From Candidatus Omnitrophota bacterium (GTDB taxonomy: Bacteria > Omnitrophota > Gorgyraeia > Gygaellales > Profunditerraquicolaceae), in the NCBI GenBank assembly GCA_011620275.1, contig WOZK01000004.1:21931-85930 (forward strand): DNA of 64,000 nt, given 5' to 3'. This document shows, piece by piece, positions 2,382 to 61,413 of this stretch. The notes under the pieces were generated by a model. That model had not been told where the DNA came from. It saw nothing but the letters and a program-made list of their open reading frames with translations, and did not search any database. Position 1 is the stretch's first letter; each line of letters starts with the position of its first letter. Made by a program: the position numbers and the translations under genes.

Positions 2382-3643
2382 GGCCGTTCCCCCAGCGCGG
2401 AGAACTCCGCCTTGAACGCTCTCCCCCGCTCTTCATAATTGGTAAACATGTCGAAACTGGAGCACATGGGAGACAACAGCACATAATCGCCCGTAGAAGC
2501 TTCCCGGAAGGCCCTTTGCACCGCGTCCGGCAACCCGGCGGCGTATTCCACCGGCACGCAGCCGCCCAGGCAATCCCTTATCTTGTCTTTCGCCTCGCCT
2601 ATCAGCAGCAGCTTTTTGACCTTCCTCTTCGCGGCTTTGGCTATCAACGAATAATCGCATCCCTTGTGCCTGCCTCCGGCGATCAGGAACACCTTCCCCT
2701 TTATGTTGTTCAGGGCCCACAGCGCAGATTCGGCGGTGGTCGCCTTGGAATCATTGATAAACTTTACCCCGCGCTTCTCCCCCACGAATTCGAAACGATG
2801 CTCTATGCCGCGGAAATCTTTAAAGACCTTCGCGCAGAGATCCGGAGTTATCCCGAGCAGTGAAACCGCGGTCTTTACCGCGCTTTGATTCGGATTCAAT
2901 CCTTCTTCCTCGCGGAAATAAACGGTCCTGGAACGCGCCTCTTTTCCCAATCCGCGCAAATACCGGTCCGAAGGATTGAGCAAAAGAAAATCCCCGTCTC
3001 CCTGGTTCAAATAAATGCGTTTCTTCGCCTCGAGGTATTCCCTCATCCCCGGGTACCTGTCGAGATGATTCCTGTTTAAGTTCAATATCACAGCTATCCA
3101 TGGCCTGAAATCGCGTATCGTCTCCAGTTGGAAAGAACTAACCTCCAGACAGACAAAATCTTCGGCGGCCATTTTTTCCACCTCTCCGCAGAAAGGAGTC
3201 CCGATGTTGCCGCAGACAAAAGCTCTTCTCCCGGAAGCCTTTATGACTTCCCCGATAAGAGTGGTAACAGTGGTCTTGCCGCTGGAGCCGGTGACCGCGA
3301 TCACCCGAGACGGGCAAAGCATATACGCGACTTCTATTTCTCCTATCACCGGTATGCCGGCCTGCGCGGCGAAACTGAAAACCTGGCTTTGCGGACCCAC
3401 TCCCGGAGAAACCACTACCATTTCGCTTCCGTCAAGAAATTCACGCGTGTGCCGCCCTAATTCGACCTCGATATCGGAAGAACAAAGTCCGCCCGCCGCC
3501 GTCCTGGTGAGCGTATTGTCGCAGGCGTCGGTCACTCCCACACGCGCGCCTATCCTGTAGAGGAGATTAGCGCAGGCGACGCCTGAACGCGCCAGTCCCG
3601 CGACCACGATCTTCTTCCCTTTGAAAAACTCCCGGTTTTTCAT
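2378..3643 (-). CDS. murD: UDP-N-acetylmuramoylalanine--D-glutamate ligase MurD
   Basis: N-terminal Rossmann motif KKIVVAGLARSG, Mur ligase P-loop GSSGKTT, 421 aa, dcw synteny. Confidence 0.9.
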   Translation of the reverse strand: MKNREFFKGKKIVVAGLARSGVACANLLYRIGARVGVTDACDNTLTRTAAGGLCSSDIEVELGRHTREFLDGSEMVVVSPGVGPQSQVFSFAAQAGIPVIGEIEVAYMLCPSRVIAVTGSSGKTTVTTLIGEVIKASGRRAFVCGNIGTPFCGEVEKMAAEDFVCLEVSSFQLETIRDFRPWIAVILNLNRNHLDRYPGMREYLEAKKRIYLNQGDGDFLLLNPSDRYLRGLGKEARSRTVYFREEEGLNPNQSAVKTAVSLLGITPDLCAKVFKDFRGIEHRFEFVGEKRGVKFINDSKATTAESALWALNNIKGKVFLIAGGRHKGCDYSLIAKAAKRKVKKLLLIGEAKDKIRDCLGGCVPVEYAAGLPDAVQRAFREASTGDYVLLSPMCSSFDMFTNYEERGRAFKAEFSALGERP

Positions 3644-3683
3644 CTCTCGTCTTTCATCCTTGTAAAACAGGTTCTTAATGCTT

Positions 3684-3770
3684 GGAAATCGAAAGTAGAA
3701 AATTGGCCGCCCGCACTGAAGCGTTAGCGGACTCTGTGCGCTGTTTAAGAAACTTATTTAACAGCGCACT
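3684..3770. repeat. ~90-bp intergenic repeat element (family 4) with an internal 11-bp perfect hairpin (GCGCTGTTTAA...TTAAACAGCGC). Copy 1 is in the murD-mraY gap.
   Basis: About 85% identical to the reverse complement of 55215..55302. Core shared string AAATTGRCCGCCCGCACTRAAG..TTAGCGGACTCTGTG. A 16-mer ATCGAAAGTAGAAAAT also recurs near 40170 on the other strand. Confidence 0.6.
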
Positions 3771-4860
3771 ACCTCAACTTCAGCGTTACCAGCGCTAGCA
3801 GCGCCAGAAGTCCGGCAACTATCCAGAAACGCACGATCACCTTGCTCTCCTGCCAGCCGAGAAACTGAAAATGGTGGTGCAGCGGGGCTATCTTGAATAT
3901 GCGTTTGCCGGTCAATTTGAAAGAAGCCACCTGCAGTATCACCGAAAGCGCCTCCATAACAAACACGCCCCCGATGACGATCAACAACAGCTCTTTCTTT
4001 ATCAACAGCGCGACCGTGCCGAGCGCTCCGCCCAGAGCAAGAGATCCCACGTCTCCCATGAATACGGACGCAGGATAACAATTGTACCATAAAAAACCCA
4101 GCCCGGCGCCGAGTATGGCGGAACAAAAGACCGACAGCTCCCCGGCGCCTCTTATGTAGGGAATAAAAAGATAACTGCTGAAACGAATATTGCCCGCGAG
4201 ATAACTCAATACCCCCAGCGCTAAGGCGGCCATGACCACGTTCCCGGAGGCAAGGCCATCCAGCCCGTCGGTCAAATTAACCGCGTTGGAGGAACCGGCG
4301 ATGACCAGCGCGGAGAATAATATATAAAACACGCCCAGGTCTATTGTGATCTCCTTCATAAAGGGAATGTCCAGGGCGGTCCCGTACTGGCCGTCTAAAA
4401 AAATAACGAACCCCGCTATCAACCCTACCGCCAGCTGGCTCGCGAGTTTCTGCGCCGCGCTCAGGCCTTTGGAACGCTTCCTGGCCTGCTTTAGATAATC
4501 GTCCGCGAAACCGGTAAGCCCGAGCCAAAGAGTGACCGTCAAAGCGATAATAATGTTCTTGTTAAGCGCTTCCGACCAGAGCAGCGTGGAAATGAAGACA
4601 GCCGCCAGTATAAATATCCCGCCCATAGTGGGCGTATCCTGTTTGTTTATCTGCAGTTTGTAAAGTTCGAGGCTCTCTTTATTATTGCGGATGTTCTCCC
4701 CTATCTTCTGCCGTCTGAGCATATTTATTATCCGCGGGCCGAGAATCAAACTGAGCAGGAACGCGGTCAAAGCCGCCATCGCCGCCCTGAAAGTGATGTA
4801 ACGGAATACGTTGAAGAACGCTATTTCTCCATGCAGGGGATAAAAAAGGTAGTATAGCAT
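3769..4860 (-). CDS. mraY: Phospho-N-acetylmuramoyl-pentapeptide transferase MraY
   Basis: NLTDGLDGLASG motif and polytopic membrane protein. The likely true start is MLYYLFYPLH at 4860, with a GGAGG SD 5 nt upstream. The ORF-track extension MCPRNKTQ... is read-through of the REP-like repeat cluster. Confidence 0.9.
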   Translation of the reverse strand: MLYYLFYPLHGEIAFFNVFRYITFRAAMAALTAFLLSLILGPRIINMLRRQKIGENIRNNKESLELYKLQINKQDTPTMGGIFILAAVFISTLLWSEALNKNIIIALTVTLWLGLTGFADDYLKQARKRSKGLSAAQKLASQLAVGLIAGFVIFLDGQYGTALDIPFMKEITIDLGVFYILFSALVIAGSSNAVNLTDGLDGLASGNVVMAALALGVLSYLAGNIRFSSYLFIPYIRGAGELSVFCSAILGAGLGFLWYNCYPASVFMGDVGSLALGGALGTVALLIKKELLLIVIGGVFVMEALSVILQVASFKLTGKRIFKIAPLHHHFQFLGWQESKVIVRFWIVAGLLALLALVTLKLR

Positions 4861-4890
4861 AAGCCTCCGTGTAAAAGCTCGTTGCGTCTT

Positions 4891-4980
4891 ATTCCGGGGA
4901 CACATTACTTAATTATACGGGGACACGATACTTTAAAAGTATCGTGTCCCCGGAATTCAAGTATCGTGTCCCCGGAATTC
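4891..4980. repeat. Cluster of four copies of the 23-bp REP-like element in the mraY-murF junction. Two are forward, and two are inverted and tandem. The inner forward and inverted pair form a perfect hairpin (CGGGGACACGATACTT-TAA-AAGTATCGTGTCCCCG).
   Basis: Direct reading gives attccggggacacattacttaat, cggggacacgatactt, aagtatcgtgtccccggaattc and aagtatcgtgtccccggaattc. The last copies encode the final 7 codons (EFRGHDT) and the stop of the murF ORF. Confidence 0.85.
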
Positions 4981-22238: not shown

Positions 22239-22370
22239 ATTCCGGGGACACGATACTTAATTCCAGAAAACGATAAAAAACCGTGTTAGATTCCGCCATT
22301 TTCTTGCGTCTATTATAACAAAATAGGATTATAACATAAGTTTCCTGATTCCGGGGACACAATACTTAAT
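22239..22370. repeat. Two direct copies of the 23-bp REP-like element (22239..22261 and 22348..22370) upstream of the RAYT gene
   Basis: attccggggacacgatacttaat and attccggggacacaatacttaat. Confidence 0.85.
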
Positions 22371-22471
22371 CCTTTGGGTTCTTAGAAAGATTTTCTTGAG
22401 GCAGCGGCCAAACCTCATTCGCTCCATAGATGACGCGCTTCTTGTATAAACCAACAAAAAGGAGGCTCTCA

Positions 22472-23083
22472 ATGGCAAGGATAGCGAGATTAGTTATACC
22501 CGGAATTCCTCACCATATTGTTGTACAAAGAGGCAATAGACGTCAAGATGTCTTCTTTAACGACGATGACAGGAGGACTTATCTTAATTATCTAAAAACA
22601 TACGCTATGCCTTCAGGGATAGAATTCCTGTCATATTGTTTAATGGAAAATCACGTGCATATTATTGGTGTCCCGAGTAACAAAGATAGTTTCGCCAACG
22701 GTTTCGGAGAAGCACACCGTAGATATACAAGAATGATTAATTTCAGAAAAGGATGGAGAGGATATTTATGGGAGGGCAGATTCAAATCGTACCCCTTAGA
22801 GGGCACTTATTTATATGCCGCGCTTCGTTATATAGAAATGAATCCTGTAAGGGCAAAAATGGTGAAGAACGCCTGGGACTATCCTTGGTCAAGCGCAAAA
22901 GCACATGTCCTAAACCACACTGACATTTTACTAACCAATAATTGTATCGCTCCGGTAGTGGAGGACTGGAGATCATTTCTTTCTGAAGATGACAAACAAG
23001 ATACCGTCAACTTATTAGAAACGCATTTGATGAGCGGACGGCCGTTGGGAGATAATAAATTTATTGAGAAGTTAAAAAACTAA
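22472..23083 (+). CDS. REP-associated tyrosine transposase (RAYT; IS200/IS605-like Y1 HUH transposase)
   Basis: HUH motif NHVHIIGVP. RAYT signature YIEMNPVRAKMV with catalytic Tyr. N-terminal IPHHIVQRGNRRQDVFF. AGGAGG SD 8 nt upstream. The gene is markedly AT-rich. It is flanked by inverted copies of the 23-bp repeat. Confidence 0.85.
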   Translation: MARIARLVIPGIPHHIVVQRGNRRQDVFFNDDDRRTYLNYLKTYAMPSGIEFLSYCLMENHVHIIGVPSNKDSFANGFGEAHRRYTRMINFRKGWRGYLWEGRFKSYPLEGTYLYAALRYIEMNPVRAKMVKNAWDYPWSSAKAHVLNHTDILLTNNCIAPVVEDWRSFLSEDDKQDTVNLLETHLMSGRPLGDNKFIEKLKN

Positions 23084-23161
23084 CCGGTAAAATACTGTAT
23101 AAACAGAAACCGGGGCCGAAGAAGGCTGAGAATGAAACTCCCCGGGCTGAGCTGCTTAATA

Positions 23162-23184
23162 ATTAAGTATCGTGTCCCCGGAAT
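23162..23184. repeat. 23-bp REP-like element, inverted copy downstream of the RAYT gene
   Basis: attaagtatcgtgtccccggaat. Confidence 0.85.
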
Positions 23185-23194
23185 TACGAGCAAG

Positions 23195-23268
23195 TGCGCC
23201 TGGCAGGACTCGAACCTGCAACGCCCAGCTCCGAAGGCTGGCGCTCTATCCAATTGAGCTACAGGCGC
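23195..23268 (-). tRNA. tRNA-Arg (anticodon TCG)
   Basis: Manual fold gives a 7-bp acceptor stem, a D-arm GTAGCTCAATTGGATAGAGC typical of Arg tRNAs, anticodon loop CTTCGGA and T-arm GGTTCGAGTCC. CCA is not encoded. Confidence 0.8.
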
Positions 23269-29420: not shown

Positions 29421-29703
29421 TTCCTCTCCTCCTTTTTTATCCTTTGATTGATTGTTTGTTTGGCAAGGATAGCGCCGAATCGTTTGTTTACCAGTACTTT
29501 ATTAAAATTTATTTTCTTTGTGCTTACTTTCCAAAAGCCATCTTATTGTAACATATTGGCATTAGAAACGCTGCGCGTATTTTAATGCGTTGATTATCTT
29601 TGATTTCATGTCGGTTTAACGCTACTTCTCGGCGATAAAACCATTAAATTGAGCCGTTCTTTAACAAAGTACTGATACACTAAAAAACTTATGTAACAGA
29701 ACA

Positions 29704-32106
29704 CTAGAACCCGTGGCTCATATTGAAATGGAACCTGCCGTCGCCTTTGGAGTCCTCTCCCGAAGCCTTGTCGAGCGGGATACCGTAATCAAGCATGATT
29801 GGGCCGATCGGCGTCTTGATGCGGAAGCCTATACCGGTGCCGGCTTTCAACCCGCCGCTGCCCAATTTGTTGGCTTTTTCCCAAACATTACCGATATCAT
29901 AGAAAAACGCCACGCGCAGGAAATTCATCAGCGGATACGTGTATTCGGCGTTGGCGACCATTATCGCCTGACCGCCCTTGGGATCATCATTCCCGTAGTA
30001 TGGACCGATCCTGCGTTCCTTGTAACCGCGGATGGTATTGGCTCCTCCGGCGAAATATCGCTCATAAATAGGCACTGTGGAAGTATCTCCATAAGGTTCA
30101 GCCACGCCCGTGCGCAGCCTCAATTCCATCACCGACTTCATGAACAGCGGCTGGTAATGCGACATCCTCAGGAAAAGCTTGTAGAAGTCTTTGTCTCCTC
30201 CGAACGGACCGCCGGCGACGTCAACAGTGCCGCTGACAAGATCTCCCCTGCGCGGGTCGAACACATTATCCCTGCTGTCGTAGGTGAAGCCGTAATTCAT
30301 ACTGCTGATATTATATTTCCCAATTTCCTCTTCTATAAATTCGGTGTTTGTATTTAAGTCATCGCTGGGATTGCTGATCTCGATCTGCTCATACTTATAC
30401 ATCACGCTACCCTTGAGATACTCGCTCAGGTCCTTAGTCAGGCGCAGGTCGCCGCCGGTGACGTCTTCATCGTAGCCGTAACCGACGTCGGAATCGCGCT
30501 CGTGCGTACGCCTGTAAATATCGAAACCGAATGAAACCGGATAATCGAATATCCAGGGCTGGGTAAAGCTCAGTTCATACCCTTGGGTCAGGCTGCCGAT
30601 AGAAGCCCTGATCTTCAGGTCCTGCCCGCCGCCGGTGAAATAGGGAAAATTCTTCCAGTCGAAATTTCGCTGTTCTATCTCCACAAAACCGATGAACTCG
30701 TCCACGCTGCTGTAGCCGCCGCCGAAGCTAAACATACCGGTCTTCGACTCTTTCACGTCCACCACCAGGTCTTTGCGGTTGGGGACATCGGTATCCTCGG
30801 TATCGTAGCTGATCTCCTCGAAAAACCCGAGGTTCTGCAGCCTTTCCTTGCTCCTGCGCAGCTTGTCTCCGTCGAAACGGTCGCCGGGATGTATACGCAG
30901 TTCACGGCGGATGACTATATCCCTGGTCTTGACGTTGCCGCGTATCTTGATCTTGTTCACGTAGGCGATATCGTTCTCGACTATACGGTAAAGAATGTCC
31001 ACGTTGCCGTTGACCAGGCTTAAAGACGTGCTCTCCAGCACCCCGGCAAAGATGTAGCCTTTATCGAAATACAAACCCTGGATGGATGCGATATCTTCGT
31101 GCATCCCCTCCTGACTGAATACCTTGCCCGGCACGCAAACCTTGATCCTCTCCATTATGTCTTTCTGCGCGATATCTTTGTTCCCTTCTACCTTCACGGA
31201 GCCCACGAAATATTTCCTGCCCTCGTTTATGGTAACTATGACCGACAGGGTATTACGGTGTTTGTTCGGGACCACTTCGTAAGAAACCGTCATATCCGCG
31301 TAGCCGCTGCGCCTGTAGAAATCGCGCAGCCGATCCATATCCTCCTTTATTACTTCTTCCTTAAGTATCCCGGAATTGAAAAGCCAGGCGCGCCTGGTCT
31401 TCATTATCTTTAATATCTTGCCTTTTTTGTATGCCTTGGCGCCGCGGACGAAAATGTCCCGTATCTTGGCCCTGAAGCCTTCTTCTACCTTGAAAATGAC
31501 CAGCGCCTTGCCGTTCTCCTTGTTGAAATCAACGGAATATTCGACTTTCGCGTTGCTGTAGCCGCGCTTCTCGTAAAGCGCCCTCAGCGTCGCGCTGTCA
31601 TCGGTCAATGTCGGATGGTCGAGATACTGCGATTCTTTTGACTTAATCATCCCTTTAAGCTTATCTTCTTTCATACGAAGGGTTTTCACCCCTGAAAAGG
31701 AAATTTTTTCTATAAGCGGACGCTCGTTGACCGTTATCACGAGCTTGAGCCCGCCGTTATAAGGCTTGACGTCTGTATTTATATCGCTAAAAAAACCGAG
31801 CAGATACAGCCTCTTGATGTCGTCGCTTACAACGTTCTCCTGGTAAAGGCCGCCGACTTTCGTCTTTATTTTGGCTATTATGGTATTGGTGCTGATGGTT
31901 TTGTTACCGGCGACTTCTATCGCGGTAACCTTGGAATCCGGAGATATTGTCGGAGAATTCTCTACCCGGGGAAGCGTTGCGGCTGAAGAAGGAGCAGCCT
32001 GCGAAACGCCGCTGCCGGCAGGCTGGGAATCCTGCGCGAATGCGGCGGCCGCCATGAAAAAGGCGAGAACAAAAGGTATTGCCCGGAACATATTCTTATG
32101 CGTCAT
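29704..32106 (-). CDS. bamA: Outer membrane protein assembly factor BamA
   Basis: 800 aa with signal peptide, POTRA repeats and C-terminal Omp85 barrel (ends ...RFHFNMSHGF). Confidence 0.9.
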   Translation of the reverse strand: MTHKNMFRAIPFVLAFFMAAAAFAQDSQPAGSGVSQAAPSSAATLPRVENSPTISPDSKVTAIEVAGNKTISTNTIIAKIKTKVGGLYQENVVSDDIKRLYLLGFFSDINTDVKPYNGGLKLVITVNERPLIEKISFSGVKTLRMKEDKLKGMIKSKESQYLDHPTLTDDSATLRALYEKRGYSNAKVEYSVDFNKENGKALVIFKVEEGFRAKIRDIFVRGAKAYKKGKILKIMKTRRAWLFNSGILKEEVIKEDMDRLRDFYRRSGYADMTVSYEVVPNKHRNTLSVIVTINEGRKYFVGSVKVEGNKDIAQKDIMERIKVCVPGKVFSQEGMHEDIASIQGLYFDKGYIFAGVLESTSLSLVNGNVDILYRIVENDIAYVNKIKIRGNVKTRDIVIRRELRIHPGDRFDGDKLRRSKERLQNLGFFEEISYDTEDTDVPNRKDLVVDVKESKTGMFSFGGGYSSVDEFIGFVEIEQRNFDWKNFPYFTGGGQDLKIRASIGSLTQGYELSFTQPWIFDYPVSFGFDIYRRTHERDSDVGYGYDEDVTGGDLRLTKDLSEYLKGSVMYKYEQIEISNPSDDLNTNTEFIEEEIGKYNISSMNYGFTYDSRDNVFDPRRGDLVSGTVDVAGGPFGGDKDFYKLFLRMSHYQPLFMKSVMELRLRTGVAEPYGDTSTVPIYERYFAGGANTIRGYKERRIGPYYGNDDPKGGQAIMVANAEYTYPLMNFLRVAFFYDIGNVWEKANKLGSGGLKAGTGIGFRIKTPIGPIMLDYGIPLDKASGEDSKGDGRFHFNMSHGF

Positions 32107-32301
32107 ATCCGAAGTGAAATTTTATACCTCATACACGTTAACCCCGGCCGCGTCACCGTCGAAAAATACACGGTCGCAACAATTTTTCTCAGTATAACAC
32201 ACCGCATTCAAAAAGCAATAGAAAAATCTCTCCCCGAATTAACTCATATGAAATCTAACCGAAAGTTTTCTATACAGGCAGGTATCGTTGACTCATCAGA
32301 T

Positions 32302-33242
32302 CCCGGGGACACAATACTTAATTATAAGTTTCCTGTAAGTTTTAAATGGGTACGTAGTGTTTATTAAGTCTGGTAAAATCCAAACGGCCGGTTACCAGGA
32401 AAGCGCCGATCCTGAAGTACCGGAAGGTGCTGAAACCTATGGCGTTAGCCTTAGCCGCCTGAATTAAGAAATTAAGTCCTTCAAGGAAACCGTTATCAAT
32501 GTGCGATTTCTTCCACTGCACAACACCTTCCCAGTGAGCTTTAATCGTGCGGGCGGCTTTGTGTCTGTACTTCTTGTTTGCGAACCGTATCAACTGCCGT
32601 GTTGATGATTTTGATGATATGGAACCGGCCAAAGGTAATCTCGGCGTTAGGGAAATTATCCTTAATGCCCTTTATAAAAGCCGGCCACATATCACAACTG
32701 ACATCCGTGACTGCCTGCGGGTTGCCGTTGTGTTCTTTGATATCCTCGGCAAAAGCTTCAACGGTCTTTTGGTCATTGCCTTCGGCGATGAAAACGGTTC
32801 GCTTCTTGAGAAGGTCAACGAACAAGGTAATGTAATCGTGGCCCTTACGCCTTGAAGTCTCATCTATGCCGACGCCTTTAAGATCCCTGTAATCGTTGCC
32901 GGCCAAGGCCAGAGTCACATAACGTTCCAGTATCGCCCAAATCTTGTAATCTGATTCGCCAGTAATCCGGCTGACAGTATGAACCGGCATATGGCCGGCT
33001 AACTGGATAAGCAAAATGAAAAATCGCGCCTTTGTGAAAATCAATGTGAATATCCAGCCGCTTGCTTTCGGCGCTAAACTGGATATCTTTGATATACCAC
33101 GGTTCTTGAATATTTAGAGCAAGCTCAAACAGCTGTTGGGTAAACATTGGCATCCTCCTGGTTTATTGTTCCTACAGGATTATACCAAATTACCCATTCG
33201 AATTTCAGTAGACTGTTAAATTAAGTATTGTGTCCCCGGAAT
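32302..33242. mobile_element. Degenerate ISL3-family element, bounded at both ends by inverted copies of the 23-bp repeat (32302..32322 and 33220..33242)
   Basis: The left end is cccggggacacaatacttaat. The right end is attaagtattgtgtccccggaat. The internal transposase reading frame is frameshifted. The element is AT-rich. Confidence 0.6.
32342..33153 (-). pseudogene. ISL3-family transposase split over three frames (at least two frameshifts)
   Basis: The frames contain ISL3-like segments (HTH-like VSRITGESDYKIWAILERY; DDE core GVGIDETSRRKGHDYITLFVDL, CDMWPAFIKGIKDNFPNAEITFGRFHIIK; and a C-terminal NGFLEGLNFLIQAAKANAIGFSTF). Confidence 0.7.
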
Positions 33243-33249
33243 TACGGAA

Positions 33250-34596
33250 TCAGAACTCTACCCTGGCGTAATTCTCAAAACGGGTATATTCTTTTATGAA
33301 GGAGAGTTTAACCGACCCGACCGGGCCGTTACGTTGTTTGGCGACTATGATTTCGGCGATACCTTGATTTTCCGGGGTGGGATTATAATATTCTTCCCTG
33401 AGAATAAGCACCACCACGTCGGCGTCCTGTTCAATGGCTCCCGATTCCCTCAAATCCGATAACTGCGGACGGTGATCGTCGCGACGCTCCACGGCGCGCG
33501 AAAGCTGGCTGATGGCGATAACCGGCACGTTAAGCTCCCTGGCCAGCGCCTTCAAGGAACGCGATATTTCGGATATCTCCTGCTGTCGGCTTTCGTCCGA
33601 ACCGCTGCCGCTGCCGCGCATCAACTGCAGGTAATCCAAAATTATAAACTGGATATCGTGGTGAGATTTGAGCCTGCGCGCCTTGGCGCGCAGTTCCATT
33701 ACCGATATGCCCGGGGTATCATCGATATAGATGGGTGCCTCGGAAAGCCGTCCGGCGGCCGCAGTGAGTTTGGGCCAGTCGGACGCGGAAAGATAACCGG
33801 TCCTGACCTTGTGGGCATCGACCCTGGCGTGAGAACAAAGCATCCTTTGCACCAACTGTTCTTTGGACATTTCCAGGCTGAATATGGCGGTGGGCACCTT
33901 GGCGGATACCCCGGCGTATTCGGCCATGGACAAAGCCAAGGCGCTCTTACCCATGGAAGGACGCGCCGCCACAATCACCAGGTCGGACGCCTGCATACCG
34001 GAAGTTATCGTGTCGAAATCCAGGAAACCGGTGGGGATACCGGTGACATGCGCCTTCTTCTGGTAGAGACGATCGATATTCTCTATACTGTCCTTGATAA
34101 TCTCTTTCAGGTGGACGGCGCTTCCCCGGTGGCGGCGGTCGCTCACTTCGAAGATGAGTTTCTCGGCGTTATCGACCACCTCGCGGACGTTCCCCTCGTT
34201 CTCGTAACAGGAAGAGATGATGCGAGTGGCGCTGCTGATTAGCCCGCGCAGAACGCTTTTATCGCGGACTATCCCGCTGTAATGACGGATGTTGGCCGCG
34301 CTCGGCACCGCGTTGACCATAGACGCCAGATAACTGGCTCCGCCGGTCTCCTCGAGTATCCCCTTGCGGCGCAGTTCGTCTGTCAGCGTGATAAGATCAA
34401 CCGCCTTGTTGACGTTGAAAAGATCCAGTATGGTCTCGAATATCTTGCGGTGGGAATCTTTATAGAAACATTCTTTGCCGAGGTGCTCCGCGGCGACCGC
34501 TATCGCCTCTTCATCCATAAGCATGGAGCCGATTACCGCCATTTCGGCGTCCAGGTTCTGCGGCGGGAGCTTCTCGATGGAACTTTCCGTAGGCAT
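33250..34596 (-). CDS. dnaB: Replicative DNA helicase DnaB
   Basis: Walker A GARPSMGKSALAL, 448 aa, directly downstream of rplI. Confidence 0.92.
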   Translation of the reverse strand: MPTESSIEKLPPQNLDAEMAVIGSMLMDEEAIAVAAEHLGKECFYKDSHRKIFETILDLFNVNKAVDLITLTDELRRKGILEETGGASYLASMVNAVPSAANIRHYSGIVRDKSVLRGLISSATRIISSCYENEGNVREVVDNAEKLIFEVSDRRHRGSAVHLKEIIKDSIENIDRLYQKKAHVTGIPTGFLDFDTITSGMQASDLVIVAARPSMGKSALALSMAEYAGVSAKVPTAIFSLEMSKEQLVQRMLCSHARVDAHKVRTGYLSASDWPKLTAAAGRLSEAPIYIDDTPGISVMELRAKARRLKSHHDIQFIILDYLQLMRGSGSGSDESRQQEISEISRSLKALARELNVPVIAISQLSRAVERRDDHRPQLSDLRESGAIEQDADVVVLILREEYYNPTPENQGIAEIIVAKQRNGPVGSVKLSFIKEYTRFENYARVEF

Positions 34597-44598: not shown

Positions 44599-44664
44599 AA
44601 TCCGGGGACACTATACTTAATTATTCCCAAAACCACAGACATTTAAGTATTGTGTCCCCGGAAT
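44599..44664. repeat. REPIN-like inverted doublet of the 23-bp element (forward 44599..44621, 19-bp spacer, inverted 44641..44664)
   Basis: aatccggggacactatacttaat...atttaagtattgtgtccccggaat, which can form a ~23-bp stem hairpin. Confidence 0.85.
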
Positions 44665-61337: not shown

Positions 61338-61413
61338 TACCGGGGACACTCCGGGGACACAATACCTAATTGCGAGTATAGCGATAAATAATTAAGTATT
61401 GTGTCCCCGGAAT
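61338..61413. repeat. REPIN-like inverted doublet of the 23-bp element in the divergent era/mutS intergenic region. An extra partial copy sits at 61338..61350.
   Basis: taccggggacact, then ccggggacacaatacctaat, a 20-bp spacer, then attaagtattgtgtccccggaat. Confidence 0.85.

Follow-up and report, generated by a model that had tools for sequence, protein, structure and literature searches.

A decayed ISL3-family insertion sequence that probably lies in the loop of a pre-existing TIRYT repeat hairpin

Insertion sequences (ISs) described from within REP sequences are IS1397, ISKpn1, ISPsy8, ISRm22, ISPpu9/10 and IS621 (Tobes & Pareja 2006, PMC1525189). The families represented among REP-resident elements are IS3, IS110, IS4, IS256 and IS5, and the ISL3 family is absent from this list (PMC1525189). 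In REPIN/RAYT systems, paired inverted units form hairpins, the repeats are dispersed between genes and a single-copy Y1 gene is flanked by the repeat (Bertels & Rainey 2011, PMC3116915). TIRYT genes, in turn, code for RAYT-like Y1 proteins and lie between long inverted repeats which share the sequence GGGGWSAS and which also occur as single copies and dimers (PMC3733652, Di Nocera et al. 2013). Their products have been assigned to subclass 2.1 of the TnpA_Y1 proteins, which is characterised by the motifs NHVH, W[EQ] and YIELNP (PMC6006769, Quentin et al. 2018).

In the window, by which we mean the whole 64-kb stretch of DNA analysed here, the remnant of an ISL3-family IS interrupts an intergenic palindrome on or close to its axis and leaves a half-repeat on each side, as the REP-resident ISs do. 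Unlike those elements, of which all or most copies are found at a fixed cut point together with a duplication, it is represented by one decayed copy without a duplication, and its relatives are located elsewhere. A single dead copy of this kind does not establish targeting by ISL3 elements.

The remnant is enclosed by an inverted repeat with arms at 32300-32323 and 33219-33242 (24 nt each, 96% complementary with one mismatch). The perfect core of this repeat is the 21-bp sequence CCGGGGACACAATACTTAATT at 32303-32323 (+) and 33219-33239 (-), and both 21-mer arms start with CCGGGGACAC. The left hairpin arm, a TIRYT-type inverted repeat (GATCCCGGGGACACAATACTTAATT), extends over 32299-32323 on the plus strand with a PWM score of 39, and the right hairpin arm (AATTCCGGGGACACAATACTTAATT) over 33219-33243 on the minus strand with a score of 46.6. 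An independent Logan assembly from another data set (L004) is identical to window positions 29645-33448 (100% identity), so the structure of the locus is not an artefact of one assembler. These data confirm the preliminary description of the locus insofar as an ISL3 transposase lies between inverted copies of one motif, with the perfect 21-bp pair bracketing a three-frame pseudogene. The further statement that the element is bounded precisely by these copies was accurate only in the sense of bracketing, as the ends of the IS itself, placed by homology, are at 32328 and ~33215, so that 4 nt separate the IS from the left arm and 3 nt from the right one. The intervening nucleotides are ATAA (32324-32327), a loop remnant on the left side that was delimited by end alignment, and TTA (33216-33218), a loop remnant between the other IS end and the right arm that was delimited by end alignment and in-silico removal of the IS.

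The remnant measures 888 bp (32328-33215, minus strand), compared to ~1.35 kb for an intact element as in L001 and L125, and was assigned to the ISL3 family by Pfam and NCBIfam matches. Its DNA is 73-79% identical to the relatives L002, L126, L127 and L128, with ~77% for L126 and L128. An open reading frame at 32541-33044 (-) matches positions 1-105 of the Pfam profile DDE_Tnp_ISL3 (PF01610; E 2.2e-31) and another one at 32342-32632 (-) matches positions 186-238 of the same profile (E 1.5e-11). Both matches exceed the 23-bit cut-off, which identifies the product as an ISL3-type DDE transposase. Furthermore, an ISL3 transposase from Omnitrophota shares 87% identity with the first 47 codons, counted from the ATG at 33153, of the open reading frame 33153-32878 (-). 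The NCBIfam model NF033550 scored 129 bits on the fragment, relative to a 180-bit cut-off that is meant for the full-length protein.

That the ISL3-like reading frame is split over three frames, as had been noted before, was borne out by a tblastn search with a 416-aa reference built from the ISL3 relative in L001, which mapped three pieces to frames -1, -2 and -3. Fragment 1 (33020-33153, minus strand, frame -1) comprises approximately codons 1-44 and stops at the first deletion. Fragment 2 (32559-33015, minus strand, frame -2) covers reference residues ~113-264, which correspond to the end of the HTH and, with the GIDETS motif, to the first half of the DDE domain. Fragment 3 (32342-32560, minus strand, frame -3) follows the second deletion and covers reference residues 344-413 and the stop codon. 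Residues ~45-112 and ~265-343 of the reference are missing, and ~270 of ~415 codons are left. DNA alignments to L002 and L127 place the first deletion, of ~203 nt, at a junction near 33006-33016, where the Zn-ribbon region is gone, and the second, of ~257 nt in these alignments and ~240-257 nt overall, at a junction near 32557-32572, where positions 105-186 of the DDE profile are gone. No further stop codons were found in the transposase pieces. Judged from these alignments, the three-frame split is caused by two internal deletions and not by point frameshifts. The C-terminal ...HYVPI followed by a stop codon agrees with the natural C-termini of the relatives. A complete transposase of ~400-440 aa with an N-terminal Zn-ribbon and HTH is not encoded by the remnant, which thus carries a pseudogene, and no second ISL3 fragment was detected in the 64-kb window. 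A promoter-like site in the IRL (33179-33208, minus strand; CTGAAA-18-TGnTATAAT), recognised by its match to the consensus, is probably the IS's own, and its GGTATAAT box is kept in L002 and L125. The remnant is non-autonomous and probably immobile.

IS ends were recovered from six relatives (L001, L002, L125, L126, L128 and L129) and consist of GGCTCTTT or GGTTCCTG repeats. The IRL reads GGCTCTTTGGCAATTTGAATGGGTAAT in L002 (72% amino acid identity), GGCTCTTTAGGGTTTCGAGTGGGTAAG in L125 and GGCTCTTTCTAAAAAGATGTGGGTAAAT in L001. The IRR reads GGTTCCTGTAAGTTTCAAATGGGTAAG in L126 and GGTTCCTGTAAATTTTAAATGGGTAAG in L128, with the common form GGTTCCTGTAA.TTT.AAATGGGTAAG, and was also recovered from L129, L125 and L001. 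In L125, a perfect 8-bp target duplication (CCCAAATC) is located immediately outside both tips, which fixes the position of the tip for the clade. In the window, the IRR (GTTTCCTGTAAGTTTTAAATGGGTAC; 32328-32353, plus strand) matches that of L126 and that of L128 at ~23 of 26 bases and overlaps the transposase stop codon at 32342-32344. The IRL (CAGTCTACTGAAATTCGAATGGGTAAT; 33189-33215, minus strand) was aligned to the one of L002; its inner 11 nt are identical, whereas the outer, degenerate 16 nt agree at 8 positions only. The window IS thereby has terminal inverted repeats of the family type, with a GGCTCTT-like tip and a TGGGTAA box. No clear copy of the arm motif was found beside the IS end of any of the six relatives, and only the flank in L126 is weakly alike. 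Overall, the window element resembles the ISL3 family in its DDE_Tnp_ISL3 domain, HTH and C-terminal ...NG.LEGLN..., in subterminal repeats homologous to those of its relatives, in its AT-rich insertion site and in a transposase that spans from ~65 nt inside the IRL to within the IRR. It differs from the family by its two internal deletions, the degenerate IRL tip and the lack of a recognisable 8-bp duplication.

The arms are members of a repeat family that consists of dispersed singles and hairpin dimers. With up to three mismatches, the motif occurs in 13 copies in the 64-kb window and in none of 100 shuffles. The cognate TIRtron, which represents the source family of the arms, extends over 22347-23185 (plus strand), and its inverted repeats at 22347-22371 (+) and 23161-23185 (-) surround an intact Y1 (HUH) transposase gene (22472-23083, 203 aa). 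The encoded protein matches the Pfam profile Y1_Tnp (E 5.5e-9, 36.6 bits, cut-off 23), and its translation contains ...CLMENHVHII..., ...YLWEGRF... and ...LRYIEMNPVRA..., and with them the motifs NHVH, WE and YIEMNP. Both TIRtron repeats contain GGGGACAC, which conforms to the GGGGWSAS of TIRYT inverted repeats. In the NHVH, WE and Y---NP motifs of its Y1 protein, the system is similar to TIRYT/TIRtron elements, TnpA_Y1 subclass 2.1 and the group 1 RAYTs of Bertels (PMC5581495). The long GGGGWSAS repeats and the dispersed singles and dimers are likewise TIRYT-like, and this likeness is a feature of the arms, not of the IS. The window protein is shorter than the members of subclass 2.1 (203 aa versus a median of 238).

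The comparison with REPIN/RAYT systems is mixed. Paired inverted units that form a hairpin, intergenic dispersal and a repeat-flanked single-copy Y1 gene are shared features. In contrast to REPINs, the consensus of the repeat across genomes, AATTCCGGGGACACNATACTTAATT, has no GT[AG]G head, the single unit is not self-palindromic and does not fold, and the loop sequences are unrelated between dimers. The Y1 protein reached 53.5 bits with the NCBIfam model REP_Tyr_transpos, which is below the cut-off of 80, and was therefore filed under TIRYT / subclass 2.1. The initial view of the repeat as a REPIN consequently holds for a hairpin repeat accompanied by a Y1 transposase, but the repeat belongs to the TIRYT/TIRtron class and not to the canonical GTAG-type REP/RAYT systems.

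A scan with CCGGGGACACNATACTTAAT, which covered one genome per species, returned at least 112 stretches. The phyla and classes among the matches listed were Planctomycetota, Desulfobacterota, Gammaproteobacteria, Alphaproteobacteria, Nitrospirota, Omnitrophota, Clostridia, Elusimicrobia, Saccharibacteria, Bacteroidota and others. At least eight of the listed loci, as well as one metagenome locus, contain a Y1 homologue (38-52% identity) no more than ~100 nt away from the motif. Motif-adjoining homologues occur in Geobacter, Nitrospirota, Thermodesulfovibrionales, Pseudomonadota, Sphingomonadales and others, and the one in the Omnitrophota genome 'Ca. Undivivens industriae' is 91% identical. 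Several of the homologues lie inside an inverted motif pair with a distance of ~700-790 nt, and the arrangement of a gene between inverted repeats is also present in L047, L084, L014 and L120. Over 219 copies (112 listed loci, the window and L117, a contig described below), the consensus is (A)ATTCCGGGGACAC-N-ATACTTAATT, and the outer AATT is conserved even though it was not part of the scan query. Dimer loops range from 4 to 40 nt across genomes, and loops of 4-7 nt are the commonest dimer form. None of the 112 listed loci has an ISL3 element adjoining the motif, and among the 219 copies only the two arms described above adjoin ISL3. On this sequence context, the 21-25-bp motif is best described as the terminal inverted repeat of a Y1 TIRYT/TIRtron element, a relative of the RAYTs.

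We also observed that the 25-nt TIRYT repeat is near-invariant in more than 10 phyla, even though identity among the neighbouring transposases is no higher than 38-52%. REP-RAYT pairs of the canonical type, in contrast, differ between species. A statement of this near-invariance across phyla was not found in the TIRYT/RAYT literature cited here, and the motif string itself was not found in the literature searched.

A search with DnaB led to the contig L117, the sole empty-site relative. Its DnaB is 98% identical to that of the window and its DNA 94% identical across ssb-rpsR-rplI-dnaB and bamA (the genomes are ~6% apart). The dnaB-bamA spacer of L117 reads TAA-TTCCGGGGACACAATACTTAATT-ATCAT-AATTAAGTATTGTGTCCCCGGAA, continues into the upstream region of bamA and contains no IS. 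Both arms are joined by a 5-nt loop (ATGAT, or ATCAT on the other strand), and as single-stranded DNA this hairpin has a predicted folding energy of -26.4 kcal/mol (z -12.5). The left arm in the window is orthologous to one arm of the L117 hairpin, and the right arm to the one located immediately 3' of the dnaB stop codon in L117. In-silico removal of 32328-33215 from the window yields ...ACTTAATT-ATAATTA-AATTAAGT..., that is the same hairpin with a 7-nt loop. As loops of 4-7 nt are the commonest across genomes, the L117 hairpin shows the native state of the site. The direction of the change, insertion in the lineage of the window and not loss in L117, follows from parsimony and from the inability of inverted arms to mediate a deletion. 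The empty site in this 94%-identical relative directly supports the earlier suggestion that an IS landed inside a REPIN-like repeat and then decayed.

The two sites differ outside of the arms as well. On the right side, the window has an 8-bp tandem duplication (CGGAATTA|CGGAATCA) at 33237-33252 that overlaps the dnaB stop codon. On the left side it has 71 extra bp at 32232-32302, a segment of which no second copy was found in the window or in any locus examined. An inverted similarity outside of the arms (32272-32302 versus 33240-33272) was taken as an artefact of gapped local alignment. A partial duplication of the repeat's outer end is also present at 61338-61350, and such duplications may be typical of the repeat family.

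The 8-bp direct repeats that could have been expected outside the two motif copies flank neither the 21-mers nor the short doublets. At the IS tips, the flanks AATTATAA (32320-32327) and TTAAATTA (33216-33223) are not direct repeats, and a search at every plausible boundary in the window (outside the arms, at the IS tips and with shifts of 1-3 nt) did not reveal a target duplication. After removal of the IS in silico, 7 nt remain between the arms compared to ~13 nt expected from loop plus duplication. The L117 loop and a palindrome without a loop (TTAATTAA) were also modelled as insertion targets, neither of which fits without several extra indels. With only 8 of 16 positions of the IRL tip matching, the exact insertion chemistry is not reconstructable. 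The degenerate tip suggests that the junction was remodelled after insertion, and the missing 8-bp duplication may well have been lost in the course of this remodelling.

Our preferred reading, to which we assign a probability of about 90%, is that the locus represents a decayed ISL3 element in the loop of a pre-existing TIRYT hairpin, the arms of which stem from a separate Y1 system. The data show the identity and the end positions of the IS, the association of the motif with the Y1 gene and the empty site. According to this scenario, a TIRYT repeat dimer, its 21-bp arms separated by a few loop nucleotides, would have been resident just 3' of the dnaB stop codon, upstream of bamA, and an ISL3-family IS of ~1.35 kb would have transposed into the AT-rich hairpin apex. 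Internal losses of ~203 nt and ~250 nt would then have eliminated the Zn-ribbon and the central part of the DDE domain, with two changes of the reading frame, and decay of the IRL tip would have left the immobile remnant of 888 bp. The apex (ACTTAATT-loop-AATTAAGT) is an intergenic, AT-rich island of ~20 nt in a genome with 52.6% GC. The IS flanks of most relatives are AT-rich too (ttattaaaataa, ttactaaattta, catatattca, agatatttcc). Ordinary ISL3 transposition into an AT-rich intergenic spot that is selectively tolerated would thus explain the location of the element. The arms have remained perfect while the IS decays, which suggests that they are maintained. The dead IS is without evident effect on dnaB or bamA.

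Two alternatives treat the arms and the IS as one unit. The preliminary description had proposed that the 23-mer could be the terminal repeat of the ISL3 element, so that the dispersed singles and doublets would be solo repeats or MITEs derived from this IS as their parent. The perfect arms are indeed only 18 nt away from the transposase stop codon and 65 nt away from its start, and a weak inverted-repeat similarity runs on from the arms into the element; this inward similarity, however, is that of the ISL3 IRL and IRR themselves. The proposal is refuted by the ends of the relatives, which differ from the motif, have no clear copy of it beside them and are confirmed in one case by a proven 8-bp duplication, by the homologous ends that the window IS keeps inside the arms, and by the motif flanking a Y1 transposase gene in the window and in other phyla. 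The listed motif loci without any adjoining ISL3, the lack of 8-bp duplications at the arms or at the doublets 44602-44661 and 61351-61410, and an empty site that holds both arms are further evidence against it, and we accord it next to no credence. It could also be imagined that arm, IS and arm form a mobile composite, in which a repeat dimer with its passenger was moved by the Y1 transposase. The same inverted pair frames the Y1 gene at a similar arm-to-arm spacing (789 nt, versus 895 nt around the ISL3 remnant), and the perfect conservation of the arms despite the decay of the IS would be in line with such a unit. Yet a second copy of the composite was found neither in the window nor in the protein database, where the sole near-identical match is the same locus, and its arms are orthologous to the hairpin that resides at the same site in L117. 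Moreover, other long plus/minus motif pairs (L066, L108 and L062) enclose ordinary host genes. We therefore regard a mobile composite as very improbable.

Other alternatives leave the arms to the Y1 system and concern the way in which the IS came to lie, or no longer lies, between them. The ISL3 lineage might specifically recognise the TIRYT hairpin and insert at its apex, in a manner comparable to the use of REPs by IS1397, ISPsy8 and ISRm22. Targeting of REPs is known in five other IS families (PMC1525189) and the insertion lies at the palindrome axis; in addition, the flank in L126 is weakly arm-like at a distance of 2 nt from the IRR tip, with a PWM score that falls in the top 0.016% of window positions. 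By gapped score, however, the L126 similarity is not significant (p ~0.03 before correction for six ends), and the ends of the five other relatives (L128, L129, L125, L001 and L002) lie in unrelated AT-rich sequence. A scan of JGI metagenomes for an arm followed by 0-14 nt and GGCTCTT, a query that covers this tip type and not GGTTCC-type tips, gave 6 chance matches and no ISL3 element. The idea that the IS targets REP sequences, which had been part of the first interpretation, is hence unsupported by the relatives and by metagenome junctions, and specific recognition of the hairpin appears quite unlikely to us. A further variant assumes that the common ancestor already carried the IS and that the lineage of L117 lost it by precise excision, so that the 'empty' site would be secondary. 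The heavy decay of the IS in genomes that differ by only ~6% could be taken in its favour. Dimers with tight loops of 4-7 nt are, on the other hand, a common native form in many genomes, and inverted arms do not promote deletion, which leaves a small chance for this variant. Even with excision in L117, the arms would remain separate from the IS.

For annotation, insertion into a resident hairpin means that the 21-mer is to be recorded as an inverted repeat that belongs to a Y1 (TIRYT) element and that its dispersed copies are not ISL3-derived MITEs. With its empty site in a relative, the locus provides a clean case of an IS that landed at the apex of a repeat hairpin, an event of a kind that is already known. 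The ISL3 lineage might prefer the AT-rich apices of such TIRYT dimers, with L126 as a weak second candidate, but we give this idea a low probability. If true, ISL3 would be a further IS family attracted to REP-like palindromes, and its insertion into hairpins or cruciforms would seem to proceed without the customary 8-bp duplication.

In genomes from more than ten phyla among the matches listed, the 25-nt inverted repeat (A)ATTCCGGGGACAC-N-ATACTTAATT that bounds the Y1 element is near-invariant, and the adjoining Y1 (TIRYT) proteins are only 38-52% identical to the protein of the window. The Y1 protein of 'Ca. Undivivens' (L055) shows 91% identity to the window protein. Repeat and Y1 protein occur together in the window at 22347-23185 and at loci L047, L078, L084, L014, L026, L050, L055 and L120. 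The string of the 25-nt motif had no match in the literature searched. In the surroundings of the window element, an additional solo repeat (22242-22262) precedes the left repeat by 109 nt, and a tRNA-Arg(TCG) gene on the minus strand (23194-23268) starts 9 nt past the right one.

A complete Y1 element is also found in Geobacter hydrogenophilus DSM 13691 (L047, NODE_24, 60-900), where the left repeat is tandemly duplicated with a unit of 43 nt. As this contig is short and its name gives a coverage of 248, the data suggest that the element is present in multiple copies in this isolate.

REPINs are copied as whole units, whereas the repeat dimers described here differ in having loops of mostly unrelated sequence, which range from 4 to 40 nt across genomes. 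Within the window, the dimers at 44602-44661 and 61351-61410 both have a loop of exactly 18 nt, and the two loop sequences are unrelated. A nested arrangement is present at 4890-4979, in which a tight inner palindrome (GGGGACACGATACTT-TAA-AAGTATCGTGTCCCC) lies within an outer pair of arms; the folding energy of this structure is -36.9 kcal/mol.

At two positions of the window, a repeat arm carries a short tandem duplication at its outer end. The duplication at 33237-33252, CGGAATTA followed by CGGAATCA, overlaps the dnaB stop codon and is represented by one copy in L117, the 94%-identical relative with an IS-free hairpin at this site. At 61338-61350, a partial head, CCGGGGACACT, immediately precedes the arm starting at 61351. 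On the other side of the ISL3 remnant, a 71-bp segment (32232-32302) separates the bamA upstream region from the left arm. This segment is missing in L117 and has no second copy within the window or any locus.

Among the relatives of the ISL3 remnant, the one in L125 (2150-4890) carries a perfect 8-bp duplication, CCCAAATC, and a second ISL3 element, 31% identical, interrupts it at about 3038-4433. The relative in L001 has a single defect: the codon of a conserved Trp (2998-3000) is replaced by TGA in frame, so that it is either a one-step pseudogene or belongs to a host in which TGA is decoded as an amino acid.
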